A DNA stretch of 59,911 nucleotides, taken from positions 1-59,911 of IMG/VR virus record IMGVR_UViG_3300040971_000369. The stretch is one strand, 5' to 3'. A program made the position numbers and the translations under genes. How positions within the stretch are numbered: the stretch's first letter is position 1; every line of letters starts with the position of its first letter. This DNA comes from a virus. Lineage: Duplodnaviria; Caudoviricetes. The notes under the pieces were generated by a model that was not told the origin of the DNA, made no database searches, and was given only the letters and a program-made list of their open reading frames with translations. Positions 11,972 through 31,885 of this stretch are shown here, one piece after another.

Positions 11972-12127
11972 GAGTGAAGAGAGAACGTTGATGGACTGAG
12001 CATCAAATCGCGGAGTTAGGTCGAAATGGCCACAACGAAACCACCAAATTAAAGACCGTAAGATGGTAAAACCAACCTTACGGTCATGATTTCAATGGCG
12101 AAGCCGATGGACTCGTCCGACGGCTGA

Positions 12128-12147
12128 CGTGACAGGACGATGATTGC
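12128..12147 (+). repeat. 20-bp direct repeat, copy 2, in a decayed tRNA-like context ending ...CTTCGCCA and followed by a hairpin
   Basis: Identical to 5122-5141. Confidence 0.6.
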
Positions 12148-12151
12148 GGTT

Positions 12152-13087: not shown

Positions 13088-13162
13088 GGTTGAGGTAGGG
13101 TCTAACAAGTAATTATAAAGTTTTATGGCATGACGACCTCTTTATCCATTTTAATTAATATT

Positions 13163-13429: not shown

Positions 13430-13451
13430 TTTAATTCCCTTAGTAATTTAT

Positions 13452-13517
13452 GCATAATGTGGAGTTAAGGCGCCTGCGTGGCTTTTCGCACAGAACGCCT
13501 CGAATACAGGGTTAGGG
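13452..13517 (-). other. attC site (integron cassette recombination site), slightly degenerate
   Basis: CCCTAACCCTGTATTCGAGGCGTTCTGTGCGAAAAGCCACGCAGGCGCCTTAACTCCACATTATGC. R'' overlaps the TAA of the upstream gene; central inverted repeat; R' is mutated to ATTATGC. Confidence 0.75.
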
Positions 13518-14024
13518 CAGCGGTCGAGAAGGGCCACAAATTGGAATTGCACGCTCACCGTTTAGAACCTCAAGCAACAATGTCCGCAACTCGTTTTGTT
13601 GCGCCTGATTGAATACGTATCCACTCGGATAGTAAGACGGTTGCTTAACTAAGGACTTTGAGAATGGGATTTTAAGGTCCATTGCCATTAGATGAATTAG
13701 GTCGGCGAGCAGGTTGCTCGCCGTGCTCTCCCACCGAGCATGACTATCTTCGGTTTGGCCTTGGTCTGAATTCAGATGGGCGAAATATAGACGCCATGCG
13801 TCTGCGATCTTTGGGTAGTCCTTTTCAAGAAAGGCAAAATCAATTTGATTCAATGCCTGAACATGATCTGGATGAAGCGGTACAGAGCGAGTTGACCAGA
13901 GAGAGCGGAATACCCATTCCTTTCGGTCGTGAACCATTCGGCGCTGTTGTCGCCACTCAGAGGCCCAGACTGCGAGGACTGGCCCTGCGAGTGTTGCGAA
14001 AACTACTGCCCAATCAATTTGCAT
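13512..14024 (-). CDS. Cassette protein with N-terminal TM (DUF6680-like)
   Basis: GPVLAV...VFRSLWSTR...HVQALNQID...W..YFAHLN; AAGGAG SD; stop lies in attC R''. Confidence 0.65.
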   Translation of the reverse strand: MQIDWAVVFATLAGPVLAVWASEWRQQRRMVHDRKEWVFRSLWSTRSVPLHPDHVQALNQIDFAFLEKDYPKIADAWRLYFAHLNSDQGQTEDSHARWESTASNLLADLIHLMAMDLKIPFSKSLVKQPSYYPSGYVFNQAQQNELRTLLLEVLNGERAIPICGPSRPLP

Positions 14025-14046
14025 GCGGCAACTCCTTGCTAGAAAG

Positions 14047-14127
14047 TCCTAACAAGTTTTAATATTTTATCCCACTTACAGATAAGTGGCCTAACGAAGA
14101 CAGGTCCGCTTGAGCGAGATGTTAGGC
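14047..14127 (-). other. attC site, degenerate on its right arm
   Basis: GCCTAACATCTCGCTCAAGCGGACCTGTCTTCGTTAGGCCACTTA...GTTAGGA. R'' GCCTAAC is the exact complement of the GTTAGGC core that opens this cassette (14569-14575). Confidence 0.75.
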
Positions 14128-14153
14128 TGCGGCGACTGTATTGCTCTTGTAGC

Positions 14154-14525
14154 CTATGAAGTAAGAATGGACTCGATAATCTTCTTTCCGACGGAGATCA
14201 CGAGATCAAACGTCATATCAAGTCCTTTGGACTTGAACGTCTCCTTTGTCTTGCTCCAAACGGATTCACTTCGGATGGTGTCGAGCAATTCATGCCCGGC
14301 ATTCGTCATGTTCGTAACGATGGCTGCGTGAATCGCACCATTACCTGACTTCGACTCTAGGAACTTTGCGTTGACGTAGCCAGCCTGATCGAGAAGCCGC
14401 ATGTTGTACGCGACTTCTTGTTCCGAGAACTCGGACAACTTGCCCGGTGTCAGATTGGTATTGGCGGTCGGTGCCTCCTCAAGCTTCAAGAGGACGGCGC
14501 GAATGATTTCCCAGTCACGCTTCAT
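14154..14525 (-). CDS. DUF2513-family winged-helix protein (gene cassette)
   Basis: MKRDWEIIRAVLL...MTNAGHELLDTIRSESVWSKTK. Confidence 0.8.
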   Translation of the reverse strand: MKRDWEIIRAVLLKLEEAPTANTNLTPGKLSEFSEQEVAYNMRLLDQAGYVNAKFLESKSGNGAIHAAIVTNMTNAGHELLDTIRSESVWSKTKETFKSKGLDMTFDLVISVGKKIIESILTS

Positions 14526-14568
14526 GTGTTGACTCCCAGCTTTGGATAGATCGAATACGAATTGTACG

Positions 14569-14631
14569 GCCTAACGCCCAAGGGTTGGAAACGCGTAGCG
14601 TAGTCATTCCCGTTGCTTGTAATTATTAGGT
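14569..14631 (-). other. attC site following a truncated cassette ORF remnant
   Basis: ACCTAAT...GACTACGCTACGCG...GGCGTTAGGC; an ORF remnant (...GIKQNPINADE*) stops at its start. Confidence 0.6.
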
Positions 14632-15096
14632 TACTCATCCGCGTTAATTGGATTTTGCTTAATTCCAAAGTAGGCAATTACGACGAAGTCAGCAATAATA
14701 TGACAAAAAGGCGAGGGCCAGATATCGATCTTGAATTTAGGTCTTCCACCTTTTTAATACCAGTACCCTAGCCAACAAAATCATGTTTACTGATACATGA
14801 ATGATTACGGTTCTGGCAAGAATTTCTCCTGTCATACGTTCACATTAAGCCATAAACAACAAAGGCCACTCGATATCAGACGGCCTTGTTTATGGCTCCG
14901 TGAAGGAGCGCAGACTTCAGAAGAATAAACCTCACAGCGGAGGCCACAACTGAAAAGAGATTTCAGCCTTTCGACCGAAATCCCTTATCTTGTTTGGCGG
15001 TGCCGTTGGGGATCCGAACCATTCCGCGAATGTCGCCTCGATGTTCTCCATGTTCATGCTGACACCGTATAGGCCGCCCTAGGCAAAAGTGAGGGA

Positions 15097-15261
15097 CTAC
15101 ATCGGCAACCACCCCGCCGCGGCCATGGACAGGCAGACTGGTAAGAGCACGGCTGCAAACAGGATCATGCGCTTGCGCGACTTGCGTGCGCATTCCTTGC
15201 AATGACGTTGAACGTCGTTCATCAAATTCAATCCACATTTCGGACATGCAAGTATTGTCAT
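15097..15261 (-). CDS. 54-aa zinc-ribbon + TM microprotein (not in the ORF track)
   Basis: MTILACPKCGLNLMNDVQRHCKECARKSRKRMILFAAVLLPVCLSMAAAGWLPM; AAGGGGG SD. Confidence 0.55.
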   Translation of the reverse strand: MTILACPKCGLNLMNDVQRHCKECARKSRKRMILFAAVLLPVCLSMAAAGWLPM

Positions 15262-15679
15262 ACAGCCCCCTTTTTTTGGGGATCTTTAGCAAATCTGGAC
15301 GATCCTTAGAATGGGTAGTCATTTAAGCACAAGAAACGCCAGGAATACGTTGTGATACGCATACGGGGTGTTCTTGTCGTTTGATACGCGAAACAGGCCA
15401 CCGCCAAAAAATCCATCATTCTACTCCATGCCCACGACAAAGATCGCGCTTCTCAGTTAGCCAAAAAATTTTCAGGATCTTCAAAATTTCTTGTGTCTTA
15501 CAGCAGCTATACGCTATGGCACGTAAAATTTGTTGCGGGCGAGCAGCGCCCACATCGCTTTTGGAGACCATAAGCTCAGTCATTGAAAGGTGGTTCCAAG
15601 CATATTAAAAACTGCAGTTAAGTTGTTGCCTTAATCACAAAAATCGGAATGATAAATTGTATTGTGATTCACTTAATCT

Positions 15680-16756
15680 ATGGAAATACAACACCGCTAC
15701 GCCATCGACCACGAAGAACAACTCATAGATGTTCATAATTTAGATCGCGCATCTGTCCCAGCAGGTACGATATTCAAATGCGTTGGGTGCGGCGGAGATC
15801 AAGTTGCATGCCTTGGTGCTGTTAGACAAAAGCATTTCAAACATAAAATCAATACTCTCAGTTGTTCTGAAGAAACATACTTGCATCAACTTGCAAAACG
15901 AGTTTTTTATTCTGAGTATACAAAATGTCTTGAAACAAAAAAACCATTTCATTTAGTTCGTTTAGAAAAAAGCATTTGTGATCATTATGAGCAGCAATAT
16001 GGTTTTACTTGTTCTAATAAAGATCTTGTTTATCATGATTTAACGAAATATTTTAATAATATATTTCTTGAAAAATATCATAGTGGCTTTGTTGCTGATG
16101 TCCTTTTACAATCGGATAAATACGGAATTCTTTTTGTTGAATTTGCCGTTACCCATAAATGCGAGAAAGAAAAAAGGAACAGTGGAATACGTATTCTTGA
16201 ATACTCCTTAACTGAAGAAAGGGACATAGAACCAATTAAGTCTCACTTAATTCGCGCTAATGATTTTAATATCAACTTGTATAATTTTAAATCACAAATA
16301 GTTAGAAAATCAATATGTAATGGAAAATGTCATGCAGCAATAATAAATGTTTTTATTGTTTCAAAAAATAAAAAAGCTATACTGAACGAAATGGAACCCA
16401 GTCCAGACTTAAAGAGTCAAATACGAGGAAACCCGGCTTATGTTGAAATTTTAGGTTTAAAAAAAGGGGAAAAAAAAGACCAGACATTGCTTTTTATGCA
16501 GAAAGTGCGTGAAGCACACTTCAAAAATATTCCTATCAGAAACTGTTATATCTGTAAGTACCATGGGATCGATGGCGTAGATAACGCTGTATTTTGTAAG
16601 ATTAAAAAAACCAGTACTCCATCAAACTATGCTGTCGACTGTAGCAAATATTGTCCGATGAACAGTTTAGAGGAGTGCTTGGCTTTAGATGTTAAGAATG
16701 AAGAATCTGCAAAAAAATTTAAATATCACACTATGATTCGTCGGCGGTATTCGTGA
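15680..16756 (+). CDS. CoiA-like Zn-finger + PD-(D/E)XK nuclease
   Basis: CVGC...HFKH...EETYLHQLAK N-terminus; ADVLL...VEFAVTH catalytic-like motif. Confidence 0.7.
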   Translation: MEIQHRYAIDHEEQLIDVHNLDRASVPAGTIFKCVGCGGDQVACLGAVRQKHFKHKINTLSCSEETYLHQLAKRVFYSEYTKCLETKKPFHLVRLEKSICDHYEQQYGFTCSNKDLVYHDLTKYFNNIFLEKYHSGFVADVLLQSDKYGILFVEFAVTHKCEKEKRNSGIRILEYSLTEERDIEPIKSHLIRANDFNINLYNFKSQIVRKSICNGKCHAAIINVFIVSKNKKAILNEMEPSPDLKSQIRGNPAYVEILGLKKGEKKDQTLLFMQKVREAHFKNIPIRNCYICKYHGIDGVDNAVFCKIKKTSTPSNYAVDCSKYCPMNSLEECLALDVKNEESAKKFKYHTMIRRRYS

Positions 16757-16928
16757 CAACATAATCATGACTCCTCTGAGCGACGCATCGTGGCCCTAAA
16801 TTGCGCAAAAAAATACTTCATCAATAACTACATGTGAGCCATCTATCTAGTATATTCAAAGCAGTTTAATGATATATGTCTTATCGATCTGCAAATTTTT
16901 GCTAAAAATTACACCACGCGGAGGCAGC

Positions 16929-17423
16929 ATGTTTAGAACAACTTGTTCTATTTTTTTATTTCTCATTTTAGGGGTATTTAGTGCAGGATGCTCAACAAAA
17001 GTTGTTTACAACACGCAGATGCCAGAAAATTATGTAAAGAATTCTAAAATCGAAAAATACGATATTCAATACAACGACGGTGTTTTGGCCTCTAGAAAAT
17101 TAATTAGTCAAATTAATTTTCAATTAAAAGAAAAAATTGAGAAAATGAATGTAGATAATTACAGTCAAAAAATCAGCATTACAGTTCATGTGTCAGAGGT
17201 TAAAATCGCCAGAGTAGGATCAACTCTTATGCTTGGAGCATTTGTTGGCAACAACGAGCTAAATGGGTTCATAGTTGTTCATGATTATGAAACCAATAAG
17301 ATTATAAGTAGCTACGCAATCGAAGTGGACAAAAACTATGGCGGATATTCCGCATTTTTTGATCTTGAGGAAAAGATGGCGGAAGAGTTTGCTGATCAGA
17401 TTCTAAAACAAATCAATTCTTAG
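16929..17423 (+). CDS. Putative lipoprotein (DUF4410-like)
   Basis: GGAGG SD; signal peptide with lipobox FSAGC. Confidence 0.65.
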   Translation: MFRTTCSIFLFLILGVFSAGCSTKVVYNTQMPENYVKNSKIEKYDIQYNDGVLASRKLISQINFQLKEKIEKMNVDNYSQKISITVHVSEVKIARVGSTLMLGAFVGNNELNGFIVVHDYETNKIISSYAIEVDKNYGGYSAFFDLEEKMAEEFADQILKQINS

Positions 17424-17675
17424 GATCAGAAATTAGTTAGCCAGTATATATCAGCCTTCGATCTCAAGTGCGTACTGCGCGTAGTCTTAAAATGTCGCTT
17501 TGTTGTCGCTAACAACGACCGTGGCATCCTCGCGCGTACGCGCGTAAGCGTATTGGTTTGTTAGAAAGACGGAAGCTATGTATTCACCCGAAAAGATGAC
17601 TCATTATTGAGGCGCACACGTCACTAATCAAGATTATATATTCTGTCTAAAATTTTCAAATGCTATGAGCTTATC

Positions 17676-18314
17676 GTGACTAACATTGTGGATCTTTTAC
17701 GGCGGTCGCATGAGATGTCTGCCGAATTGGAAATCTTTCTTAATCTTCCAGTTTATAACGACTCTGCGCGAATCATATCGAGCCGCGTACTTTGTGGTGT
17801 TTCATTCGAACATTCTGAAAGTGTACGCCTACTCATCGGCACGGGTAATTTTACTTCTTCACTTGGTGTACTCCGAATGCAATATGAATCTTTTGCTAAA
17901 GCAGTTTGGGCTCTTTATGCAGCATCAGACAACATGATTAGTAAACTAGAATGTGAATTGACTTATGAAACTGAAAAGTGGGCGGACAAGGTTCCTCTGT
18001 TGAACGGAATACTCAAGGAACTTGAAGATAAAGCGCCACCTCAAGTAACTGACCAATTACTTGAGTTTAAAGAATACTCATGGAAGCCCCTCAGTTCATA
18101 TATTCATGGAGGCATACACGCCATTAATCGGCATGCCAAAGGCTATCCAACGGAACTCCTCGCTCAGGCGGCTAGATCTTCAAACGGACTACTCGTAATG
18201 ACTGGCATGATGCTTGTTGTTCTGTCTGGTGATAGTCGGCAGCAGGGAAAAATACCGGATATTCAACGTAGATTCGCTGACTGTTGTCCAAAACTGAATC
18301 CAGATAAAACTTAA
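17676..18314 (+). CDS. Hypothetical helical protein (DUF6988-like), possibly cassette-derived
   Basis: FEHSESVRLL...LRMQYE...RAVW-like helix...SSYIHGG; preceded by GCTAAC...GTTAGAA (17508-17566). Confidence 0.6.
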   Translation: MTNIVDLLRRSHEMSAELEIFLNLPVYNDSARIISSRVLCGVSFEHSESVRLLIGTGNFTSSLGVLRMQYESFAKAVWALYAASDNMISKLECELTYETEKWADKVPLLNGILKELEDKAPPQVTDQLLEFKEYSWKPLSSYIHGGIHAINRHAKGYPTELLAQAARSSNGLLVMTGMMLVVLSGDSRQQGKIPDIQRRFADCCPKLNPDKT

Positions 18315-18350
18315 CTCAAATAATACAGCAAACACAGTGGTGAACATTTC

Positions 18351-19577
18351 ATGGAATTAAAATTCAATGAATTATTGACGAAATCTGGATACAACATCTC
18401 TAATGTTCGCTTAGTTCGCCATAAAGACAATAGTGCATTTGAAGGCAGAACACCTTTTGAGCTATGGATGAATGATCGCCCAAAATTTGATTTATATCAG
18501 TCAGTTCAGCGAATTGAAAATCGAACGAAACTCAAAGCCAAATACTGGGCATCATTTTTGGGAACTCCGAATGGGCAAACCGTTTTTATAGGAATGTATC
18601 ATGTAAACTATAAAGGGCTTTTGAAGAACGATACCCCTAAACCACAAAATGACGGCATTGATCTGGCGGGAAGCTGTGATGAATATGAACTGACACTTCA
18701 AGACAATCTGAAAGAGTATATCGGAAAACTAATAATTGATTGGGGGCCTGGCGCAAAAGCTTGGATTCAAAGAGCTGACAAGCTGGACAAGGACGTGGTT
18801 GAAATACTGTCTGACGTTGTTGATATAGACGAACCTTTAATCAAAAATATTATTCGTAATCCAAAGTGGTCACGTGACGAGTTGATCTTGGCGCTTGATC
18901 TATATTTCAAAGTAAACCCATCGCATATATCAAAAAATCATCCGGCAATTATAGAACTCAGCGAAATCCTGAATTCGCTACCCATTCATCCCCATGCTGG
19001 TCATGGCGATAAGTTTCGCAATCCGAATGGGGTTTATATGAAATTGTGTAATTTTCTCAGATTTGATCCGGAATACAAAGGAAGTGGGCTTACAAGAGGT
19101 GGAAAGCTAGAGGAAATAATATGGAATGATTTTGCGAATGATATACATGGACTACAAAAGACTGCCAATTCAATCAAATTGGCTATTAATGCTGTGCCCC
19201 CGCCGAGCGACGATGAAGAAGCGGCGATTGATGAAGATGAAGAATTTATAGAAGGGCGTTTACTGACTCAGCTCCACAAACGGCGTGAACGAAACCCCCG
19301 CTTGGTGAAAAAGAAAAAAGCGAAGGTTCTTAAAGAAAAAGGGAACCTTGCTTGTGAGGTCTGTGGCTTTGATTTTCACATTTCCTATGGCGAACTTGGA
19401 CGAGGATTTGCAGAATGTCACCACAATTTATTACCGATATCCGGCTTAACACAAGCAACAGCAACAAAGCTTTCTGATCTGGCCATTGTTTGTGCGAATT
19501 GCCATAGAATGCTCCATCGTGTCAGACCTTGGAAAAGTGTTGAGCAGTTGAAAGATGTTTACATGTTCATTGGTTAA
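18351..19577 (+). CDS. HNH endonuclease (McrA-like, candidate type IV restriction) with an extra N-terminal domain
   Basis: RNPKWSRDELILALDLY domain; CEVCGFDF...ECHH...CANCHRMLH. Confidence 0.85.
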   Translation: MELKFNELLTKSGYNISNVRLVRHKDNSAFEGRTPFELWMNDRPKFDLYQSVQRIENRTKLKAKYWASFLGTPNGQTVFIGMYHVNYKGLLKNDTPKPQNDGIDLAGSCDEYELTLQDNLKEYIGKLIIDWGPGAKAWIQRADKLDKDVVEILSDVVDIDEPLIKNIIRNPKWSRDELILALDLYFKVNPSHISKNHPAIIELSEILNSLPIHPHAGHGDKFRNPNGVYMKLCNFLRFDPEYKGSGLTRGGKLEEIIWNDFANDIHGLQKTANSIKLAINAVPPPSDDEEAAIDEDEEFIEGRLLTQLHKRRERNPRLVKKKKAKVLKEKGNLACEVCGFDFHISYGELGRGFAECHHNLLPISGLTQATATKLSDLAIVCANCHRMLHRVRPWKSVEQLKDVYMFIG

Positions 19578-19725
19578 GGATGATAAATACATGCCTTGCG
19601 TTGACGTTTTTTGTCCTAAATCGCAATATAACGATATGATTAAAGACAACCAGGCCAATCAGAATCGGATGGCCTAGTTGTTTTGCAATATCTCGTAATC
19701 TAGAGTTTCGGAGATATTCTTGATA

Positions 19726-21312
19726 TTAGCACGACAGTGCCATTTCAAGTTTTTTTAATAAGACAGTCGCAATTACTATTCTTATTCTTAACTTATTTTT
19801 TTCAATACCAGGCATTTTCTTGCGCAAATGAATGTCATATTTTGAAAATTGCGAAGCAGGAAAGAATGACTCTAATAAATTACTTAAGTGGTGAATTGAA
19901 TCTGGATACTCTTTATTGTCATGTATATACTTGTGCAATTCATGGGCGTTTTCAAATTTTAAATTTTCAAATTCTATAATTAATTCATTAAATTTTGACA
20001 ATAACATATTGTTATCATCAAGATTTTTAATAGACTCTTGCGCCATTATCATTGCGTCATTCAAAGTATAATGTAGAATTTTATGATCATTTTTCCCCTC
20101 ACCAAGATGCAAACATGATCTCCAAATTGTTTCTGGATAATTACTGCTTACAATTTCAATCCTCGTACCTCTGACTTCCTTATGAGGAATTCTGATGATT
20201 CTGCTAGATGAATAATTTGTTTTGCGAATTGATCTTTTTCTTGCTTGCGGCGGGTCAAATGTTGCTACATTATTAATAATAAACGGACAGCATTGTTCAT
20301 TTGTCTCTGCGAGCATTATTCCATTTGCAATATGCCAAGTAAGTATCGGAGGTACAGCATTTCCAGCTTGTTTATATCTTGAGTTTACAGTTTTCCCTCC
20401 AAATTGAAAATTTATAGGAAATGTTTGCAACGTTGCGCACTCTCTGATTGTTGCTCTTCTATAATTTATGTTTTTAGACTTAATAACAAGAGTTTCTCTT
20501 CCCATTTGCAGAGAAACAACTGTTCTTGCTGGTTTATCTAAATCGTCTGGAAAATCCATTTTTCCCATATACGGATGATTTTGTTTCACCTGCGCTATCT
20601 GTCTCGCCTCTTGATCTGTAATAACTGTATCCATGAAATGATCAGTTAGTTCTGTCTCTAATATTTCTATCGAATAATTTGGATCTTTCACCACTTTTGA
20701 TTGAGGAACTCCCAATGGGTCTGGAAATGAATTTATAATTTCACCAAGTGTTTTTGCAGATTTCGCAAAGTTTTTTAATAAAGAAGATTTATAGGATTTT
20801 GCGTGTGTCGGTTCAGCTATTGGGTATTTTCCAATTAGCAGACGCTTACGTTTTTGAGGAGCACCGTATAATGAAATATCAAATTCTTTTTTATTCGGAA
20901 TATCTAAAAATCCTTCTCTGTCTATACCTATCCATTTTAATGGAATTCGTTCTGGTAAGTGGAGACCTATTCTTGGAACATTTTCCATAATCCAATATTT
21001 TGGTTTTTTTATATATACTATTTTTAAAAAAAATTGAACTAGCTTTAGCCCATCTAAAACATTTGCGCGAGATCCTTTTGATGTTGAAAAATTAACACAT
21101 GGAGGACCGCCAACAATAATATCGCTGCTTGGTATAGAATCTATTTCTACATTCTCTATATTACTACAACATATTTTAGCAGTAGGAAAGTTACGTTCGA
21201 AAGTTTCGATTGAATCTTTGTTATTATCGAGTCCATAGATAATTTTAAATCCAGCCATTTGAAAACCAAGACTAATGCCGCCGCAACCACAAAATAAATC
21301 GATAACAGTCAA
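19726..21312 (-). CDS. DNA (cytosine-5)-methyltransferase
   Basis: DLFCGCGG (motif I), GGPPC (IV), MENV (VI), QKRKR (VIII), ECATLQTFP (IX), QAGNAVP (X). TTG start with AGGGGA SD. Confidence 0.95.
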   Translation of the reverse strand: MTVIDLFCGCGGISLGFQMAGFKIIYGLDNNKDSIETFERNFPTAKICCSNIENVEIDSIPSSDIIVGGPPCVNFSTSKGSRANVLDGLKLVQFFLKIVYIKKPKYWIMENVPRIGLHLPERIPLKWIGIDREGFLDIPNKKEFDISLYGAPQKRKRLLIGKYPIAEPTHAKSYKSSLLKNFAKSAKTLGEIINSFPDPLGVPQSKVVKDPNYSIEILETELTDHFMDTVITDQEARQIAQVKQNHPYMGKMDFPDDLDKPARTVVSLQMGRETLVIKSKNINYRRATIRECATLQTFPINFQFGGKTVNSRYKQAGNAVPPILTWHIANGIMLAETNEQCCPFIINNVATFDPPQARKRSIRKTNYSSSRIIRIPHKEVRGTRIEIVSSNYPETIWRSCLHLGEGKNDHKILHYTLNDAMIMAQESIKNLDDNNMLLSKFNELIIEFENLKFENAHELHKYIHDNKEYPDSIHHLSNLLESFFPASQFSKYDIHLRKKMPGIEKNKLRIRIVIATVLLKKLEMALSC

Positions 21313-21329
21313 TTTTAAATCCCCTTGTC

Positions 21330-21339
21330 GACTATAGTC
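21330..21339. promoter_or_regulatory. C-box-like palindrome GACTATAGTC upstream of the methyltransferase
   Basis: Resembles GACT-N-AGTC controller-protein sites; lies between the divergent M and C-R genes. Confidence 0.55.
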
Positions 21340-21411
21340 CGTTGAAATCCATGCCCAGACATGATGACTAAAGGCAACATTTAGCAGTGTCAACATGCAA
21401 GGACTTCGAAT

Positions 21412-21618
21412 ATGACAGAAATTGGTAAAGTTATCCGGAAACATCGGAAAAATCTCGATTTGAGCCAGTCTCAATTAGCAGATTTGTCTGGACTTGATCG
21501 TACATATATTTCTTTGCTCGAATGCGACAAAAAAAGTCCAACTGTCGAAACACTCGCCAAAATCTCGCAAGCGTTAAGTGTCAAGTTGTCAGAAATATTG
21601 TCTGAGGCTGGCCTATGA
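21412..21618 (+). CDS. R-M controller (C) protein, XRE HTH
   Basis: LSQSQLADLSGLDRTYISLLE..KKSPTVETL; overlaps the REase start (ATGA). Confidence 0.9.
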   Translation: MTEIGKVIRKHRKNLDLSQSQLADLSGLDRTYISLLECDKKSPTVETLAKISQALSVKLSEILSEAGL

Positions 21619-22493
21619 TTCTCTACTGGAAAGATGAAGAGATAAAAGATATTGGGACAATTCCAACTGTATGCGACACTGTTACTCAAGCTCTAAAACA
21701 TGAAATAGAGCAATCGTTTTCAATTTTTTTAGATAATCCATTTATTATCAATGACACAGCATGGTTTGAGTATACAGAAGGGAAAATAAAACCTAGAGTT
21801 ACAAACTGCGCAGAATATATTTCAAAAAAATTTCAAAAAGGCTTGGAACATTTTGAATGGTTCAGTGATTATAAATTAAAAAATCAAGAAATTGATGGCT
21901 ATAAAGAATTTATTTTTCCAAATATTACAGTCCATACAATCTCTGAAGCAAATCTCCGTAACTTACTACTAGCCATGCCATTTGATGAGAATTTCAAGAA
22001 AGCTATTAGTCTATTATATTCATGTAATTTTGAGAAACAAAAATATTTAGCTCCAGCAGGATTCGATCTGCAATTATTTGATCAATCACAAATCTTAACA
22101 CCTATACGTGTCGGACTGGAGTTTGAGACAGGTAATATTGCAAGTTCATTCCGCGCGCTGTCAAAATTGAATTTTCTTTTTGAAGAAAATCAAATCGATC
22201 TTGGTATATTTATTACATCAGATTCAAAAAAAGTTTCTACAAGGATTTGGCCTTCTTCTAACAGAAATGGAAGTCTACAAGAGTTAAGGCAACGAATGTT
22301 TTTAAAAGATGTACGATTGCCAATTTTAATCTGTGGTTTCGCGCCAGATGGTTGGGATATGAAATCATCATATTTAGGAAATAAAGAGCGATACCAAATT
22401 GAAACAGATCGAGAAGAAATTTTAAATTTACAAAATGGCCAATCAATAAAGATGGCTTATTCTTCTCAAAAAAAATTATATAAAAAATTGTAA
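21615..22493 (+). CDS. Type II restriction endonuclease, BamHI-family-like
   Basis: VGLEFETGNIASSFRALSKL resembles BamHI EFETGNISSAHRSMNKL; upstream EIDG and downstream RNGSLQEL. Confidence 0.75.
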   Translation: MILYWKDEEIKDIGTIPTVCDTVTQALKHEIEQSFSIFLDNPFIINDTAWFEYTEGKIKPRVTNCAEYISKKFQKGLEHFEWFSDYKLKNQEIDGYKEFIFPNITVHTISEANLRNLLLAMPFDENFKKAISLLYSCNFEKQKYLAPAGFDLQLFDQSQILTPIRVGLEFETGNIASSFRALSKLNFLFEENQIDLGIFITSDSKKVSTRIWPSSNRNGSLQELRQRMFLKDVRLPILICGFAPDGWDMKSSYLGNKERYQIETDREEILNLQNGQSIKMAYSSQKKLYKKL

Positions 22494-22882: not shown

Positions 22883-25800
22883 CTATCCAGCCTTGCGATA
22901 TTTTTCGACAAATGTACGCTTCAGCTTTTCGATATTCTCATCAAGGGTGTCAACGCTCGTGGAGCGTTTGTTTTTGTCCAGCACATAGGCCTCCTGCAGG
23001 CGTTTGCCCGTGTCGAACTGTCCCAGCGCCTCACGTACCCGCGAGTACGCCGGATACAGCCGCAGCAGCTTCTCGTTGTCGCGGCGGAATGTTCTGGCCT
23101 CTTTTATGTCATCGGCGCGCTCTTTGCGCAGGGCCGCGGCGGCCGCCGGGTCTTCTTTGTCCAGGGCCAGCAGCGCGGCCCGCAGCTCGCCCAGCTCGCG
23201 GGCGCGCTTGACCACGCGGTTCAGTTCCAGTGCCGCCGCCTCGTATTCCTTGCCCAGCACGTCGGGCTTGCGGGCCGCGCTCATGTGCGCGCCTGCTGAA
23301 GCAAGAAGCGCGGTCAGGCCGTCTTCCTCTCCCTGCAGGTACTTGAGCAGATAGCCCACCTGAATGGGCTGCAGATCGCGCAGCTGTGCCGTCAGGATGG
23401 ACGGCAGGGCGCTGAAGAACAGTTCCTTGGGTTCGTACCGCGTATTTTTGACCGTCCGGCCTGTGGTGGCCAATTCCTTCACGCCCGTGAACGGCCGCTC
23501 GCGGTAGTCGGTCTTGGTGCCCAAAGCGCCCACGATCCGCATCAGCGGCGAGAGCTTGCCCTTGATCAGACTTGCAGGGTCCAAGATGCGCAGGAAGTCG
23601 GCGAAATGCCCAATCACGGAAAACACCTTGCGTTCACCCTTGGGCAGATCCATGCCAAGCCGCTCGTAGATCGGCGTCACGTCCACGCCCGTCCACTTCA
23701 TGCGCCGCAGCGTGTCCCAGTCTGCAAACTGATCCCTGTAGAGATCATACCAATGGTCGTCGTCATCACCAAGCAGGGCCGACACCAGCACCTGCAGGGC
23801 CAGCGTGTGCAGCGCCCCGACCACGATGATCCGCGCCCAGAAGCGTCGATACACCTTGTCCATGCCGGGAGGCGCGGGCACCTCGTGCATCATCCGCGCG
23901 ACGGCGTCGTTCAGCCCGGGCACCATGCCCGTGATCGTGCGCCAGTTCGATTCGGTCCAGTCCGGAGCGAGCAGCAGGAGCCGCAGCCCCGCCTGCACGC
24001 CGGGATGCCTGCCCATGCGCGCCAGGTGCAGACCGCCAAAATCGTCATTGACCAGACGCGCCACCCGCTCGGCCACCAGATCCGGATTGGGCACCCGCCC
24101 TTCCCGGTTCGCTTCGCGGATCTCGGCATCGAGCTGATGCCCATATTCCAGCACGGCGGCCTCGGCCTTGAGCCCGGCAAAATAGCGTTTGAAGAGCGCG
24201 TTGGCCGCCCGTTCGCGGAAGAACCGCCCGCCCCGCACGGCCGCAACGACCTTTTCCGCACCCGGCATGCGGCCGGACAGGTGCGTAAACAGCCGGTCCG
24301 TGATGCCGCGATGCTCAGACGCCGCGCCCTCGGACCAATCAGCCAGTTCGCCCACGGTCAGCCCGTGCCTGATGAGCTGGCGCAGCACGGCGTGATTGGT
24401 CCGGATCTTCTCCAGGCCACGCTTGTGGGCCGATACGGGGTTGATGGCGCTGGCCATTTTCTGCACGGCCCCGGACACGTCGCCCTTGCGCAGCGCTTCC
24501 AGCGCGCCCTGGTTCACGCCAAAGGCCCACGAGCGCGCGCCGGCCAGATGGTGGAAAAAGCTGGTCATCAGAATCCAGCCCTTGGCCGCGTTGTTGAAGG
24601 CCAGAATGGCACGCGGCAAGGGGGCCTTCCACGGGCTGTCCCCGTCCATGGCGCGGGTCATCCTGTTGATGAGGTCCGCCACCTTTTCCGGCGCGTACAG
24701 CGGCACCTTCTCGAAAATATCCACCTCCTGCCGGAACTCCACCCACGCGCCGGGGCTGCCCTGCTCGCGTAGCTCCTCGGCGTAGGCTCGGGCGTCGCGC
24801 TCGTTGTCAAACAGCGTGTCGGCCCGGCGCGCGCCCTTGTCAGCATACACGGCCCAATACCTGTTCGGCACAGACACGTACATCTTGCGACCCTGGCCGT
24901 CGGTACCCAGGAGCCCATACATGTCGCGCATGCGGATCTTGACCCCGGCCTTGCGCACCCAGACATGAAAACCCTTGCCCTGCAGCTCGACGTAGCCCTT
25001 CTGGGCCCGGGCCGACAGCACGCCCTGGGCGCGGCCTTCCTGGATGAACTGCTTGCCCGCCACGATTTGGCCGATCTCTCCGGCAATGGCCGCCCAGCTG
25101 GACGTGATGCCCTTGATCTGCAGGTCATAGCCCTTCATCCAGCCGTCGAAGATGGTTTCGAGCGTGCGGGCCTTGCTTGCCGTGGTGAAGGTCTTGAAGG
25201 CGTGGCCGGCGCCGGAGAAGACGGCCTTGTCGCCATCCTGCGGGCGGTTCCACAGGCGGCGCACGTAGTTGTCCAGCAGCGTGTTGACCACGCCCGCGTT
25301 TTTGGCCTGGGCGCCCACGGTCTCGAAAGCGCTGTTCATGGTTTCGTCCACGAAGTGCTTCTGCTCAATCGTCAGGTTCTCGGCCGCCTCCAGGATACGG
25401 AGCTGATCTTGAATGCGCAGCAGCGCAGCGCCCTTGATCTTTTTGACTTCAAGCTGCTCGCGGGCCCAGTCTTTGAACTCCTGAACCTTGGCGGGGTTGA
25501 TCTGCATTTCCCGATGCACGAGCATGGCCGCGTCCAGCAGGCGGGAGCGGGAGGAATCCTTGAGCTCTTTTTCTGAGGAGAAGACATTTAGGGGGTTGTA
25601 TTTCCACTTTTTGGAGTTTGCCAGGCGCTGCACGGCGCGCTGCATTTCCGTGGCGGCCACCTTTACCTGGTGTTGCACCTGGTCGCGGCCCTCGTGGATC
25701 TTATTGGCGAAGGTGCGGTTTGCCTCCAGTTCGGCCGCGATCTGCTCAGGCGTCATGGGCGTGGCCATGCCGGCCACGGTCTGGGATACTTGGGTAGCGA

Positions 25801-28800
25801 CGCGGAAAAAACGGGTATTGTCACCCTCGCCGAAGGTTTCTAATGATTCGTCCGAAGAACCGCTTTGGCCCGAGATTGCGCTAGGGGTCGCCGAAAGGCG
25901 ATGATTGGTCGGTGCCCTTTCCCAAAGCGGTTCCTTCAAAGCTCCGGTATCTGCGCCAGTTTGCATCCCCGCTTCGGCGGCATCTGCCCTGGTCTTGAAC
26001 GCAGATTCCCGGGGCTTTGTTTTTTTCCCGCCCCGGCTGAACCGAATGTCGTCGTTTGCGGCGTCAAAGCTTCCGGCGTTTCCTGTGACGGACTTCACCT
26101 GCTCCGGGTAAAATGCCACCAACTCAATCGTGCCGTCGGGAAAATCCAGCACCACGCCGTCAAAGCCCTGGTCTTTGAGGCGCTGCGTCCAGCGTGCTAT
26201 AGTCCCCTTGCTCAATCTTCTGAGCTTCTGCTTTCTCTTTAAGTTTGCGAAATAGGGGTTTCGGACAGCGACATACAGGGGCATCACCGCTTGGTTTTTG
26301 AACCTACCTTTCAGGTTCGCGTACGTTTCGGCGATGCGGACGTCGCTTATGAGGTACACCCCCCGGCCCAGCCAGCCGTTGTCCTTTCTGTTCGGATGGT
26401 CCAGGTCGAAGGCGTCTATGGCTTCTGCCGTTCCGTGAAAAAATACTCTGGGTCGTCCCCGGTCATCGAGGCCAACTTCTCTTCCTCTTCGTCCGTCAGC
26501 GGAATCAAATCCACCACCGCGTCGATTTCCTCCTGAGTATGCGCCTGCATCAGCTTTTCCAGCCACTCTTCCTCGTTGAAATCCATCGAACCACCTCCAA
26601 AAATTAACAATCCCGGCCGCACTTCCATGGATGGGCCTGCCCTCGCTGTTTACGGCCGGCCGCTCGATTCCGTCAATACTGATACTTTTTCGGCCTCTCC
26701 CCCGGGACAAGTACGTATTGTCATCCTCATCGGTCGCGCTTATGTTCCCTTCAGAACTGCTTTGGCCCGAGAACGCGTCAGGGGTTGCCGCAAGGCGATG
26801 ATTGGTCTGCGCCCTTTCCCAAAGCAGTTTTTTCTTTTGACGCCCGCCCAGCTCGTTCACAAAATACTCAAGACGCATTGGGCTGGCGGAAACCACTCTC
26901 CAGAAATTTCCGGCCGGATCGAACTCCATCTTGACTGTCGCAGTTTTCCACGTTTTCACACCACGCACCACCAGCAGCACAGAACGCGCGTGCCCCTGAT
27001 ACGCCGCGTCAAAGTTCTCGACGACATGCATCACGAAGTCACGCACGGAAGAAAAGCCCATCCGCTCAATCTCCCTTTGGTGCCGCTCGATGATATGAGT
27101 CATGTCTCCAGGCCCCAGCCGGATCGGCCCGGCCTGCCATCCTATGGCGGCGGCGATCTCCTCAGTGATCATGCCTATGTCCGCCGGGTTCCGGCTCATC
27201 TTCGCCCCGCCCCCATCCACGGCCCGGACCCCCTTGCCCTCAACCGTAGCCCGACGCGCCCGTACGATCAGATCCAGGACATCCGCATCGGTCATTTTCA
27301 GGCCCGGAAACACCCGGCGCAGCGCACGGCGCACTGCGGCCACAAACCTATCCAGCGCCCGGGCGCGAACGCCCGTTTCCGCCCAGTGCGCCAGCACCTC
27401 CTCCACGGCCTCGCGGCGCTGGTCCAGGTTGGACAGATCCAGTTTGTAACCGCTGGCGATCTCCCCGGCCGCATCGCGGACCTTGGCGTTCTCCCAGGCC
27501 AGATCCAGGGCGCGGTTCAGTTCCGCCTTGCGCATGATCAGCCGCAAGCCATGGTGCCCGGTTCCCTCGTGCAGCAGTGTGCGCCGCACGTGGTCCACGT
27601 CGGCCATGCGGTCGGCGATGATGTACACGGTACCGTTGTGATAAACGGCCTGCACGTCACCCTCGGCCCCGGCCTTGCGTACCGCGCCCAGGATCTTCGC
27701 GGGCAGATCCCGCACGGACTGCACCACATTCACCACCGGAGCCTTGGCCCAATTCCCGGCCACGGTGTCCACCACGCCTTGCACGTCGGCCGCGGGCATG
27801 CCCTTGGCAGTGGGTCTGTCGGCGCGGGAGAAAAACACGTCCACATAGCCGTGCACATCGTAACCATTGCCCCGGAACGACTGTAAATTCCCTGCCGCAT
27901 CCTGGTACAGCACATCCAGCACGCGCACGTTCGCGGCCCGCGCCAGGGCCGCAACATTGTGCCACGCCTTCGTATCGAAAATGCCGGGGATTATACCCAG
28001 AACGCCGTTGGCATTGGCGCGGTGCAGGGCCTTCAAGATATTTCCCAGCCCGTTCCCGCGCAGTGTGGCCATATCCTGCGGCGACATGGGCACAAAACCC
28101 ACCACGACATTCTGTGTATTGAGCAGCACTATGCCGGAGTCCGCGCCGCCGGTGATTGTCTTGCTATGCTCAATGAGCACATCCGGATCGCTCAGCCGGA
28201 TAACGCGCTCGGGTTCGTACACGCCGGAGAAAACGCGCACCTGCACAGGAACGCGCTTACCCTTCCCGTTGGATACTGGGATCGGGATATTGCCACCCAG
28301 TTCATTGGCAAAGCTGTTTGACGTGACCGCGAGCATACCCAGCATTTCCACGCCGCTACCCGTGAACAGGTCTCGAAAGACGTTGGCAAGAACCATGTCG
28401 GCATCTGGGGAAAGCTCGGCTTTTTCGCCTGGATGGTTGTGCGCCAGATAGACGTACCTGGCCCCGGGCACATCGAGCACGGAGCCAGCCAGAATCGAAG
28501 ATTCGGCCACGGTTGAGGAGGTAGCTCCCTTGGAGTGGTGAAGAATCACCAGGGGCTTGTTTTTGGCGTCCAGCACCAGGGCAACCATGTTTTCCTGGGG
28601 CTGTTCGGCCAGACTCGCCACGGCGACAGCCGCGTCAAGATCGGACTCTATTCTTGCGGGGACTTCTTGCTCTCCAGCTGTTTTAAGCAGGACCGAACGT
28701 ACTCCTGGGAGGCGTCCAGCGCTTCCTGGCTCGGCTCCGGAATCAGAATCCGCTCCTCGCCTTCCGGATATGTCACCTTCACGCTCGTTTTCCGGCTCGG

Positions 28801-31800
28801 ATTCGGCAAGGGTTCTTTCTTTTCCATATTCACCTCCATTTTGCCCGGCCCTGACAGTTTCGGACGCAACGCCGACAGCCGCGTCAAGATCTGATCCTAT
28901 TTTTTCGGAGACTTCTTGCTTTCCAGTTGTTTCAAGCAGGACCGAACGGACTCCTGGAAGACTTTCCACTCTTGCGGCGCTGGAATCAGGCCACTCTTTG
29001 CCCACCTCGCGCAGGGTATTGGGCTTTTGGGCCGGGTCGTGCGGCGGGGCGTTGGCCTGCTCCGTGTCCGATTCGGCGCGCTGGTCAAAGACTTCCTTGC
29101 CTTCGCGGTAATCCTGGCGCTCCTGCAGGCGGCGCAGGATCTCGTCTATCTCCGTGCGTGCATCGTCCACGGCGCGGCTGTAATCCTGCTCGATGGCCTT
29201 TTTGGACTGCACGCGGTCGCGCAGCAGGTCCATCAGGTTCTGAACCTCGCGGTCGATTGCCAGTTCCGGAACCTCAGCGCTCAACATGTCCGCCAGCTCG
29301 TCCAGCATGGCCCCGTCTCTGGACACGAAACCCAGTCCAAACCTGGACTGCATCCACTGGATTCCGTCCCGGCCCATCTGCTCCCGGGCATGGTCGTAAT
29401 TGATCCCGCCCAGCTTGCGGATGCGTGAAATCACGCGCTCATGGATGTCCAGGGCATGATCCCGCACTTCGGCATGCATGCTCATTTCATAAGCCAGATC
29501 AGCCAGGCGCGTCTCGCTCTCATCACGTTCGGCCTGCTCGATGAGCCCGGCTTCTTCCTCCGTCAACGCACCGGCATCAACCAGGTGCCGCGTTACGTTG
29601 TCGGCATAGTCCAGCGCTTCGGCTATTCGAGATTGATCCTCGACAAAAGATCCTGCCTGAAGGCTTCCCCCTTGTCCTTGGTCATCCTGTTGAACAGTCC
29701 CCGCTTGAACGTCGCCGACCGGCCCACCGTGGTCTTGTTGAAAGCCCTGGCCAGCCTGTCCAACGTCTTCTCCGCCCGCTCCGCTTTGTCCTCGGTCATC
29801 CATCCCCTCCTGCTTGTGCTGCCCTGCCACTTCCCCAAACGAAACTGCCTGATCGAAAATCGAAACATGCCCGGGAGGCGCAGCCCCTTCACCGCCACCA
29901 AACCCGCCTCCCTGATCGTTCACGGGCTCCGCTGGCTGCCGCTCCATCCAATACCGCCCCTTGTACCGCGCCAGCACCTCGGGCGGCACAGGCAAGCCCT
30001 GCTCCAGGGCCTCGCGCACATGGCGCTCGTGCGTGTTCATCCTGGACTTGGGGCCGTCGGGCTTGGCTTCCAGGTACTCGTCCTGAGTCATCTGCCAGGG
30101 GGCCTTGGCAGGTTCCGACAGATCGACGGCAGGCTGTAAACTTTCCATGGCCGCGCCGCTGGTTAAGGAAACGGCGTTTTCGTTTCCTTGCGCAAGGGGC
30201 GGAGCCGCCCCGGGTTCCGCCGGGGCAGACATCATGCCCTGCAGCTCTTCGGGCGTAAATGGGGTGTTCGGCGCCTGTTGCGCTACTGGCGCTACAGGCT
30301 GCGCCCCATCCGGGACGAATTCACCACCCACGGGAACAGCCGCCTCGGCTGCAACGCGCTGAGACTCCTTGAACGCGGCGTCACCCTCGGGGGTGCCCAG
30401 GATGGCCGGGTTGATCTCGTTTGCCTCGTCCACCACGGGGACATCGTTCATCTGCCCCAACGTATCGGCCAGATCGTCCACGCGGTCCGCGACCGTGGGC
30501 GCTGCGGCCCCTGCAGGCGCGGAAGGCGCGGCGGGCGGCGGTGTTGCCGGATCGGTCGGGGAGAGATTCAGCAGATCCACTTCCCGGCCCTGGTCCAGGG
30601 CATCGGCTGCGGCCTGCGTGTGGGCCGGGTCCGGAGCGGCGGCTTGTGTTTTGGACGGGTCCGGAGCGGCGGTTTGTGTTTTGGACGGGTCCGGAGCGGC
30701 GGTTTGCGTGTGGGCCGGGTCCGGAGCCGGGTCATTTTTGTCACGCGGCTTGGACATGGGCGACGAAAGAACATGTCCACCAGCGCCAACCATGAATGTT
30801 CCGGGAATAACAGCGGCCTCCTCGCGTGCGCCCTTGGCCACGGCCTGAACCACACTTTGCGGCTCCGCCTCGGTCCGCGCGATGCCAAGGCCCGAACGCG
30901 CGTCCTCGACCAGGCCGTTCCTTATCCATGGGAGCTTACCGGCCGTCTCGGCTATGGCCTGCACCGGACCTTCAAGCCATTCAGTCAGTGCCTCCTTGCC
31001 ACCCGTGAGGAGGATCTTGGCCCCGCGCTTGGCCAGCCCGTCCACCACTTCCTTACTCAAAATGCCATCCAGACCAACCTTGTTCAGCCAGATCGAGGTC
31101 AACCCGTATCCGGTCGAGCGCCCCAATGCCTCCGTGGGTGCCACGCCTTTCTTCAGCTGATCGGCCAGCATGCCGCCACCTTCCATGAGTCCGCCGACAA
31201 CACCGCCGGCCGTGGACGCCATGGATACCGGGACAGACATGGCTGCGGCAATGACCGGGAGCATGGACCCGGCCGCGTCCGCGCCACCTTCGAGCATGTA
31301 GCCGGGGTTCAGGAGCAGGGATGGATCATCGAGAAAGTCCTTACCCTTGCGGTATTGCGGCACGCGATCATCGGCGAATTTGCGACCCGAAGCCCAATCA
31401 GCATGAGCACTCTTGCCTTGGCCGATAAGCCAGTCCCCGCCCCGGCGCATGGCCTCAGTCAAAGGGTCGGACTCGCCGTGCGCCGTGTCGGCGAAATCGG
31501 CCATGGCGTGCAGGCCTGCGCCAGGAATGTCATAAAACAGGTTGGCGCTGAAATCGCCCAGGGCCGCGCCGGTCCTGATGGCGGACCGCACTGGCCATGC
31601 CGCGTCGGAAGACAGGACGCCGGGCTCGACTTCGGTTGACGCTGCTTTCAGCGCGGCAGCATCCTCCGCCGTAAACGGCGCTGTCTCAAACGGGTCAAAA
31701 TCCACCTGTTCGAGCGCGTATTGTTTGTTTTGCTGGCTTGCGGCGGCATCATCCGCAAACGGGTCGAAATCCACCAGTTCCAACACAGCGTCAGGCTGCT

Positions 31801-31885
31801 CCTCCTCCCAGTCCGATAGAGCCGTTTCCCCCCTTCGCGCATCCTGAAAAGGGTCGAAATCCACCCGTTCGAGAACAACCGTCAT
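22883..31885 (-). CDS. Large polyvalent virion/ejection protein (3000 aa): tandem JAB/RadC, zincin metallopeptidase (MPTase), PBECR-like nuclease, ART (ADP-ribosyltransferase)-like domain, helical C-terminus
   Basis: AHNHPG...SPDAD (JAB); [10 protein letters not shown]...EEVLA (MPTase); HIIERH...WRVVSA (PBECR-like); FHGT...GRGVYL...GFDGVV...EQVKS...N.GSFD (ART-PolyVal); AGGAG SD. Confidence 0.9.
25818..25937 (+). ncRNA. Putative antisense structured small RNA, copy 2, with promoter
   Basis: TTGTCA-N17-TAATGAT; stem GAACCGCTTTGG/CCAAAGCGGTTC; internal TCGCC-GAAA-GGCGA. Confidence 0.55.
26416..26586 (-). CDS. Nested +1-frame acidic 56-aa ORF inside the ART-domain coding region
   Basis: GGAGGT-N6-ATG; [56 protein letters not shown]. 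Confidence 0.65.
   Translation of the reverse strand: MDFNEEEWLEKLMQAHTQEEIDAVVDLIPLTDEEEEKLASMTGDDPEYFFTERQKP
26718..26838 (+). ncRNA. Putative antisense structured small RNA, copy 1, with promoter and U-tract
   Basis: TTGTCA-N17-TATGTT; stem AGAACTGCTTTGG/CCAAAGCAGTTTT; internal TTGCC-GCAA-GGCGA; followed by a T-run. Confidence 0.65.
28612..28961. repeat. Imperfect ~100-bp direct duplication (28612-28712 and 28861-28961; offset 249)
   Basis: LPGVRSVLL[E/K]T[T/A]G[K/E]QEV...SDLDAAV occurs twice in the polyvalent protein. Confidence 0.9.
28648..28827 (-). CDS. Nested +1-frame 59-aa ORF immediately before the JAB domain
   Basis: GGAGGTGAAT-ATG; [59 protein letters not shown]; synonymous-substitution pattern in the duplicate copy. 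Confidence 0.65.
   Translation of the reverse strand: MEKKEPLPNPSRKTSVKVTYPEGEERILIPEPSQEALDASQEYVRSCLKQLESKKSPQE
29623..29799 (-). CDS. Nested +1-frame basic 58-aa ORF
   Basis: AGGAGG-N6-ATG; [58 protein letters not shown]. Confidence 0.55.
   Translation of the reverse strand: MTEDKAERAEKTLDRLARAFNKTTVGRSATFKRGLFNRMTKDKGEAFRQDLLSRINLE
30608..30727. repeat. 30-bp tandem repeat x4 ([20 protein letters not shown])
   Basis: GGGTCCGGAGCGGCGG... repeated every 30 nt. Confidence 0.9.

Follow-up and report, generated by a model that had tools for sequence, protein, structure and literature searches.

Three small open reading frames nested in the linkers of a giant phage polyvalent protein gene

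The window considered here, the whole of a provirus record of the IMG/VR database (IMGVR_UViG_3300040971_000369; 59,911 bases), contains on its minus strand a giant open reading frame (ORF) for a polyvalent protein of 3000 amino acids. Three small ORFs lie within this gene on the same strand, in the +1 frame relative to the frame of the giant ORF (the main frame), and each is led by a Shine-Dalgarno (SD)-like sequence and an ATG. One of them, ORF2, overlaps a direct repeat just upstream of the RadC-like domain of the giant protein. In an original prediction made from the sequence alone, the differences between the two arms of this repeat were read as selection acting on the nested frame, and thereby as evidence that the overlapping ORF is a real gene. 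The features concerned are the following.

22883..31885, minus strand: giant ORF, 3000 amino acids, a polyvalent protein with RadC-like JAB and ART-PolyVal domains (from the ORF list, the translation and Pfam)
29623..29799, minus strand: nested ORF1 (P0015), 58 codons in the +1 frame, preceded by GGAGGGGATGG
28648..28827, minus strand: nested ORF2 (P0002), 59 codons plus TAG in the +1 frame, the ORF flagged by the original prediction
28831..28837, minus strand: SD-like GGAGGTG of ORF2, 3 nucleotides before the ATG at 28827-28825
26416..26586, minus strand: nested ORF3 (P0016), 56 codons in the +1 frame, preceded by GGAGGTGGTTCG and ending inside the start of the ART domain
28616..28757, minus strand: repeat arm B (copy B), running from the final ~35 codons of ORF2 through its TAG into the RadC domain, of which it holds the first 12 codons
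28865..29000, minus strand: repeat arm A (copy A), comprising the last ~30 codons of an ORF2-like frame with its TAG at 28899-28897, and having no start codon and no SD
28316..28651, minus strand: RadC-like JAB domain, residues 1079-1190, with the motif HNHPGEK...SPD (Pfam covers 1089-1190)
26066..26467, minus strand: ART-PolyVal domain, residues 1807-1940 (Pfam)

The giant protein is assigned to the polyvalent proteins, defined for phages and conjugative elements by Iyer, Burroughs, Anand, de Souza and Aravind (2017; PMC5512222), because its RadC-like JAB and ART-PolyVal domains were both found by Pfam. PF18760 (ART-PolyVal) was matched with an E-value of 1.3e-23 and 84.8 bits (cut-off 31.2), and PF04002 (RadC) with an E-value of 1.3e-7 and 32 bits (cut-off 22.1). 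One polypeptide thus carries at least two conflict-related effector domains, and its encoding by a phage is seen from the provirus record and from the virion genes upstream. The metal motif HxHP...S..D is present in the translation of the RadC-like JAB domain. The N-terminal extension of this domain back to residue 1079, beyond the Pfam limits, was taken from a homologue alignment. In addition, an HExxH-like sequence, HEGTGHH, is visible by eye in the translation of the giant protein, without a model match.

Coding signals of the nested frames

Codon scores were calculated in windows of 60 codons, the remaining long genes of the phage serving to train the codon table. The +1 frame was found to outscore the main frame in 22 of the 294 windows, which fall into three clusters only (29935-29576, 29005-28586 and 26695-26366), and each cluster holds one ORF led by GGAGG and ATG, namely ORF1, ORF2 and ORF3. 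The score of ORF2 is +0.23 in its own frame versus -0.46 in the main frame, and that of ORF3 is +0.44 versus -0.69. The giant ORF contains 40 off-frame stretches that run for 50 codons or more without a stop; ranked by codon score, the three nested ORFs come first to third (0.26, 0.24 and 0.17), and the fourth stretch scores -0.25. GC content was also followed by codon position. Across the giant ORF it is 0.69, 0.45 and 0.73 at positions 1-3, respectively, and around the flagged site the third-position value (GC3) drops to ~0.40 while position 1 rises, which is the pattern of a +1-frame gene. Main-frame GC3 was measured to be 25/59 (0.42) in ORF1, 23/60 (0.38) in ORF2 and 14/57 (0.25) in ORF3, versus 0.754 in the rest of the giant ORF, with P-values for the deficit of 6e-8, 1.2e-9 and 1e-15, respectively. 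Coding-like composition in the nested frame was found for all three ORFs, by codon score as well as by GC3.

An antisense gene was considered as the source of this periodicity and rejected, the best antisense frame scoring 0.16, 0.02 and 0.05 against 0.24, 0.23 and 0.44 for the nested sense frames. A leave-one-out control with 21 other ORFs flagged 28 of 621 windows. Nineteen of these come from the 5' ends of three longest-ORF calls and probably reflect overlap with an upstream gene, in which case the method would be recognizing true coding frames in the control as well.

The signals at the ends of the nested ORFs were characterized next to their composition. The pattern GGAGG-N3-9-ATG occurs 28 times in the window versus 14.6 expected, with many matches at the starts of long minus-strand ORFs; on the gene strand within the giant ORF it occurs at four sites, three of which are the starts of ORF1-3. 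All four +1 stops, that of copy A included (28648, 28897, 29623 and 26416), are TAG triplets inside a main-frame ATA codon for isoleucine, and ATA is rare in the phage's other genes (15 of 215 isoleucine codons). A promoter search of this strand around the nested ORFs gave no sigma-70-like match. Read in the main frame, the three nested stretches are of low complexity, with G, R, D, E, Q and S together making up 0.59-0.74 of the residues.

Does the main frame run through the ORF2 region as a single polypeptide? The N-terminal helix of the RadC domain, I-x-S-x-x-D-x-A, is common to nine polyvalent homologues (28-88% identity) and starts at the codon overlapping the ORF2 stop. No main-frame ATG or GTG was seen in the ~20 codons before this helix, and the main frame is open through this region in P0005, a relative of 4227 amino acids. 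Taken together, the helix position, the lack of a nearby start and the open frame in P0005 speak for a single long polypeptide whose linkers contain the nested ORFs. Openness of the main frame alone is weak evidence, because 38% of 60-codon windows in the -1 frame are stop-free.

The direct repeat and the recombination junction

The repeat at the flagged site is real. A repeat search returned 28616-28724 and 28865-28973, which are 109 nucleotides long, 83% identical and spaced by 249 nucleotides, or 83 codons; in a gapped alignment the likeness was observed to extend to ~28757 and ~29000 across a 6-nucleotide gap. Both arms lie inside the giant ORF, in the linker that immediately precedes the RadC domain. 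The same 14 codons are read in the +1 frame of both arms, followed by two residues and by the TAG stop, which is kept in both (28650-28648 and 28899-28897). Within these codons the arms differ at four sites (28684/28933, 28678/28927, 28672/28921 and 28660/28909), all of which are at +1 position 3 and +1-synonymous, with main-frame effects of K/E, A/T, E/K and P/S, respectively. The original prediction had also mentioned four flanking differences outside this pattern, and these were found: 28709 and 28700 are main-synonymous and +1-nonsynonymous (S/F and Y/S), and 28656 and 28653 are nonsynonymous in both frames. Copy A has a main-frame GC3 of 11/31 (0.35).

The claim that the duplication shows selection on the nested frame was not sustained. 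With the flanking differences included, four of eight differences follow the pattern (P = 0.26; well-aligned overlap with ORF2, 28709-28651). Four of four at one codon position fixed beforehand would have P = 0.012, but the 14 codons were picked after looking. A third sequence for the frame test was obtained by back-combining P0005, which gives the main frame, with P0014, a protein of 80 amino acids that gives the +1 frame. P0005, a type with 21 contigs on record, is 88% identical to the giant protein from residue 993 on, and P0014 is the exact +1 reading of P0005-type DNA and 83% identical to ORF2. The two were found to be jointly satisfiable in one register only, with eight DNA solutions that differ at three sites. 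A larger alignment lacking an excess of +1-synonymous changes had been named beforehand as the result that would speak against the claim, and a small enlargement of this kind (copy A, copy B and the P0005/P0014-type sequence) gives 17 changes, distributed 5:6:6 over the +1 codon positions. Between ORF2 and the P0005/P0014-type sequence there are 13 differences, comprising three that are main-synonymous and +1-nonsynonymous (E>V, G>D and S>F), one that is +1-synonymous (TAG to TAA) and nine that are nonsynonymous in both frames, seven of the latter being clustered in 28677-28664. The selection argument from the duplication alone is weak. A shift in codon-position composition is a more reliable finder of such nested genes than a few paralogous substitutions.

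The further suggestion that the upstream copy is the scar of recombination is supported, both by contig breakpoints and by a register shift in P0005. Contigs of relatives from three other runs (X6, X7 and X8) match the window from 27500 to 28865/28867 and carry unlike sequence beyond, and X6 resumes matching only from 29097. P0005 resembles the giant protein from ASETVRA (just below 28866) on and, on the upstream side, as far as ...QKP.TLRE.GKE (~29000), with a 1229-residue offset between the two. The extra block of ~1230 residues in P0005 carries PF00270, PF00176, PF04851 and PF13871, which are helicase families. With the P0005 breakpoints at ~28866 and ~29000, copy A fills exactly the gap between them. 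The junction at copy A is not private to one assembly, because positions 28968-29113 are also present, with three letters changed, in a 151-nucleotide contig (X5) from a second, independent study. Of the 12 runs listed, all stored as contigs, each is DNA or of unknown type and none is recorded as RNA.

Copy A and the P0005 type have seven private changes each and are about equally far from copy B, against which they share three of the 17 variable sites. The 6-nucleotide length difference of copy A falls in the same few bases as a 6-nucleotide deletion in X6 and X8. Copy A probably came from a diverged relative via recombination, rather than from a fresh in-place duplication. The possibility that copy A is a near-complete ORF2, raised by a translated match to 28903-29058 (52% identity, residues 7-58), was rejected, the DNA above ~29000 being main-frame sequence common with P0005.

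Relatives, analogous genes and genomic setting

The ATG, the SD and the stop position of ORF2 are kept in P0014, the only relative with a readable +1 frame, in which TAG is changed to TAA. P0014, a call on a 1785-nucleotide contig, is also the sole database copy of ORF2 that was found. DNA of close relatives was sought in IMG/VR with three queries (ORF2, residues 1000-1400 and a DNA pattern), in one metagenome scan, in one genome scan and by blastn against phages and plasmids, each time without a match. For ORF1 and ORF3, the frame test was made by parsimony on the main-frame amino-acid changes in P0005 only, a procedure to which main-synonymous changes are invisible, and such hidden changes exist in ORF2. 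On this basis, 7 of 10 main-frame amino-acid changes in ORF1 were found to be +1-synonymous, including two TTG/CTG changes at the first position, versus a null expectation of 0.26-0.35 (P 0.005-0.025). The corresponding count in ORF3 is 2 of 5, the other three changes being L/V, M/L and V/L. Another fragment of a P0005-type gene (P0017, 345 amino acids on a 1192-nucleotide contig) is the same as P0005 across the ORF1 region and adds nothing to this count. P0017 was also observed to depart from the main frame near residue 896 and to end in the +1 reading of the window, which points to a frameshift or an assembly error in that contig. A Pseudomonas plasmid match (H1, RadC-like, 33%) was dropped as too distant.

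Structure predictions were made for the nested products. The AlphaFold2 single-sequence model of ORF1 consists of three helices, with a predicted local distance difference test score (pLDDT) of 87.8 and a predicted template modelling score of 0.68, and that of ORF3 is helical, with a pLDDT of 71.6. When the ORF1 and ORF3 models were compared with the PDB by Foldseek, no match reached E <= 0.001, and the ESM Atlas gave no usable match for ORF2 or ORF1. The complex prediction of ORF2 with residues 1079-1345 returned a score of 0.00 and no answer, and is evidence neither way.

ORF3 sits in a 37-residue stretch between WFDG and GRP, and this stretch is missing from the only two IMG/VR loci with that motif (L083 and L084). 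In these loci, the only ones with NFWRWFDG (L083 1501-1632 and L084 1169-1300), GRPIVV follows after 7 residues, versus 44 residues in the window. This arrangement fits the fusion of once separate genes no better than it fits a small cassette having been inserted into a pre-existing frame.

Giant genes in the same genomic position, of 2793-3210 codons, were found by an ART domain search in Limnohabitans phage DC33 and in the uncultured podoviruses ctQRb9 and ctEw122, and the window ART domain is 43-45% identical to the giant genes of these three podophages. The +1 frame outscores the main frame in only 3 of 307, 10 of 315 and 3 of 274 windows of these genes, respectively, and these windows coincide with dips in GC3. 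Seven +1 ORFs of 61-80 codons lie at the dips, none of them annotated in the three GenBank records:

L005, 11268-11483 and 12117-12305: two analogue nested ORFs
L006, 21871-22059, 22546-22752 and 22756-22941: three analogue nested ORFs
L007, 12982-13170 and 13651-13893: two analogue nested ORFs

A site of the AGGAG/AGGAGG or AGGAA type precedes the ATG in six of the seven, and Ew122 m2 has AGGAA only. Between ctQRb9 and its close IMG/VR relative L008, 245 differences were counted in 2100 nucleotides. Main-frame position 3 is changed in 159 of 499 codons (0.32) in the flanks, versus 7/63 (0.11), 3/69 (0.04) and 10/62 (0.16) in the nested ORFs (Fisher P 4e-4, 1e-7 and 0.012, respectively), corresponding to an up to 7-fold suppression of synonymous change in the host frame.

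The homologous ATG was examined in 54 related IMG/VR loci (among L008-L074), all of which keep the upstream domain. A +1 ORF of 124-138 codons follows it in 30 loci, one of 48-62 codons in six, and one of 31-34 codons without an SD in eight; the ATG is lacking in a further eight, and the position runs off the locus end in two. The 30 long +1 ORFs are all in DNA of 32-40% GC, with an AGGAGG- or GAGG-type sequence before the ATG where this sequence was printed. Twenty AT-rich loci were examined, and in each of them no off-frame stretch is longer than the nested one (125-149 codons, the second longest being 49-79); main-frame position-3 diversity is 0.21 inside the nested ORF versus 0.35 and 0.41 outside. 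Reduced synonymous change in the host frame was thus found in ctQRb9 m1 and m2 and in the AT-rich cluster. The comparison of ctQRb9 with ctEw122 gave 19:21:18 and 20:25:21, at a divergence (~35%) that is too large for the frame test. Judged by these substitution patterns, +1 nested genes inside giant polyvalent genes exist under selection in other phages. Since only the ART domain is shared between the window protein and the analogue proteins, the analogues support the kind of gene and not ORF2 of the window itself; they raise the prior and are no proof.

Upstream of the giant gene, same-strand PHROG matches were obtained for a terminase large subunit, a head-tail adaptor/portal, a major head protein, tail fibres and an internal virion protein. 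By its position, the giant gene is the last gene of a podovirus-like virion module, and its product would probably be packaged and ejected. Some further features of the giant protein were observed. A second internal repeat (26824-26690 and 25927-25793, residues 1688-1732 and 1987-2031) flanks the ART module with a DNA identity of 80/135 bases, and its arms may be marks of module boundaries. Four tandem 10-residue units, APDP(A/S)(H/K)TQ(T/A)A, lie at 30727-30608 (residues 387-426), and a database variant of 2990 amino acids (P0004) has one fewer. Close to its N-terminus the giant protein has three copies of the motif VDFDPF (31864, 31774 and 31705; residues 8, 38 and 61). Elsewhere in the provirus record, positions 4000-22000 of the window have 34-47% GC next to the phage part of 60-65% GC, and may be a separate island or host DNA.

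Interpretation and comparison with known systems

What do the nested frames represent? The reading that we favour, with moderate confidence, is that ORF1-3 are genuine small coding sequences in the linkers of the giant gene, and that the repeat consists of the ORF2/RadC boundary plus a truncated copy of it at a recombination breakpoint. Composition, the SD, the two sister ORFs and the analogues in other phages make it quite likely that ORF2 is coding by origin, and they put the chance of a present function slightly above even. The proposal that the overlapping ORF is a real gene is thus plausible on codon usage, SD, sister ORFs and analogues, and draws nothing from the duplication. ORF1-3 would be translated by internal initiation at their own SD and ATG on the mRNA of the giant gene; main-frame translation of these stretches would yield linkers that are disordered and of low complexity. 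Judged by codon usage, as is done for overprinted genes, the older or more constrained frame would be the +1 frame, and the linker reading would be secondary. A relative's large central module block would have been lost or swapped by recombination, with copy A left at the breakpoint. We infer translation, present function and the order of these events from the sequence. The idea that the product of a nested ORF is a partner of the adjoining effector domain serves as a working guess.

A wider generalization can be put forward tentatively, and we regard it as more doubtful than the reading of the locus itself: podophage polyvalent virion genes would regularly hold SD-led small genes in the +1 frame of their linkers, as cassettes that recombine with the neighbouring effector domain and encode inhibitor, chaperone or regulator partners. 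The linkers would then be the out-of-frame reading of these genes, and 28612-28961 would be a junction after a swap.

Several observations weigh against genuine, functional nested genes. In a phage this rich in GC, stop-free stretches of 60 codons are common off-frame (17% of windows for the +1 frame, 38% for the -1 frame). No free-standing homologue of ORF1-3 was found, nor any Pfam or PHROG match, an absence that weighs little because gene callers seldom call nested ORFs. In the first 150 nucleotides of ORF2, three of four changes are main-synonymous and are those giving E>V, G>D and S>F in ORF2, and main-frame amino-acid changes of ORF2 relative to the P0005/P0014-type sequence are +1-synonymous in 0 of 6 cases (stop codon excluded). 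The C-terminal ORF2 tail on which the original prediction relied reads QSKNNTSPQK in the relative and differs from that of the window. Divergence of the ORF2 region in X7 and X8 is ~8-10%, near the 10-12% of the adjoining RadC region, with no clear extra conservation. Only the ART domain is common to the window protein and the analogues, and 16 of the 54 related loci lack the analogous ORF or have a version of just 31-34 codons.

In an alternative that we consider unlikely, the three +1 ORFs are fossils of once separate or inserted small genes whose composition survives but which are no longer translated or needed, and only the giant frame is now selected. For ORF2, main-synonymous changes that are radical in the nested product, the lack of a +1-synonymous excess and the 5:6:6 spread of the 17 changes agree with such decay, whereas the excess in ORF1 (7 of 10) does not. 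The start-less copy A persists with its composition kept (GC3 11/31), as a fossil might, but a main-frame GC3 of 0.25-0.42 within a gene of 0.75 should decay if unconstrained. Comparison between genomes is similarly divided: the analogous ORF has been lost in 16 of 54 related loci, yet the analogues are under measurable constraint, and the ATG, SD and stop of ORF2 are kept in its one visible relative, the change from TAG to TAA included.

It is improbable that the stretches are not genes at all, their rare A/T-ending codons and SD-like motifs serving instead to slow ribosomes between domains for co-translational folding, with the +1 ORFs as by-products. All three sites are inter-domain and of low complexity in the main frame (0.59-0.74, as above), off-frame ORFs of such length are common, and Gly-rich main-frame codons (GGA GGT) produce GGAGG unaided; this does not explain, however, why an ATG follows each GGAGG after 3-7 nucleotides in the same +1 frame, with ORF lengths of 56-59 codons. 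The +1 codon scores of 0.23-0.44 lie within the range of real genes (main-frame windows, 0.31 +/- 0.21), and the ORF1 excess of +1-synonymous changes and the +1 ORFs of 124-138 codons in analogue relatives of 33% GC would also be left without a cause. Programmed +1 frameshifting, stimulated by the SD-like site and yielding truncated N-terminal products with ORF-encoded tails beside the full-length protein, an arrangement resembling that of prfB with its internal SD upstream of the shift site, is highly improbable: every +1 frame does end at a domain boundary and copy A does have a +1 tail and stop without a start, but no slippery or stop-codon shift site was identified, and 3 of 3 window ORFs and 7 of 7 analogue ORFs have an ATG after an SD-like purine-rich site (one weak, AGGAA only), which fits initiation.

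Polyvalent proteins represent a large, barely studied arsenal injected by phages and plasmids. Annotation pipelines never call same-strand ORFs within a longer ORF, and a layer of small phage proteins may be absent from databases. Should the linkers of such giant proteins be out-of-frame readings of small genes, their odd low-complexity spacers would be explained, multi-domain weapons could be built and reshuffled without ever breaking the long frame, and the nested ORFs would be candidate partner proteins for the RadC-like and ART domains.

How does the locus compare with known systems? In phage lambda, Rz1 is a same-strand gene nested in the +1 frame inside Rz, with its own SD. The window ORFs are similar in that each is a candidate small gene that would share the mRNA of a larger gene, is contained entirely within it in the +1 frame and has a ribosome-binding site of its own. 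They differ from Rz1/Rz in that three occur in one gene, at the boundaries of polyvalent domains, and in that they have no lipoprotein or spanin features.

As in the polyvalent proteins of PMC5512222, the window gene encodes a giant phage polypeptide with several conflict-related domains (RadC-like JAB and ART-PolyVal) next to virion genes, and its module content varies between close relatives, as seen from the ~1230 extra residues of P0005. The SD-led +1 ORFs in its linkers set the window gene apart from that account, in the searched passages of which nothing was found on second-frame ORFs inside polyvalent genes. A literature search returned general work on overprinting and on out-of-frame remodelling, and none on polyvalent genes.

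For overprinted viral genes, a codon usage typical of the genome is taken to mark the ancestral frame (Sabath, Wagner and Karlin, 2012, PMC3494269; reviewed in PMC8227390). The window resembles this situation in that two frames of one stretch would both be coding. It reverses the usual case, in which an old gene gives rise to a new ORF within it, since here the long host frame looks secondary and the small nested one ancestral. Out-of-frame remodelled gene families have been described in E. coli (PMC8788219), and here too part of a gene would be read in another frame within a different, longer protein. In contrast to those families, the original frame seems to be kept in the window as an ORF with an SD, and the other reading would be a linker in a phage virion protein. 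Overall, nested +1 genes with their own SD are already known in phages, and what sets this locus apart is the presence of three such candidates in the linkers of one polyvalent gene.

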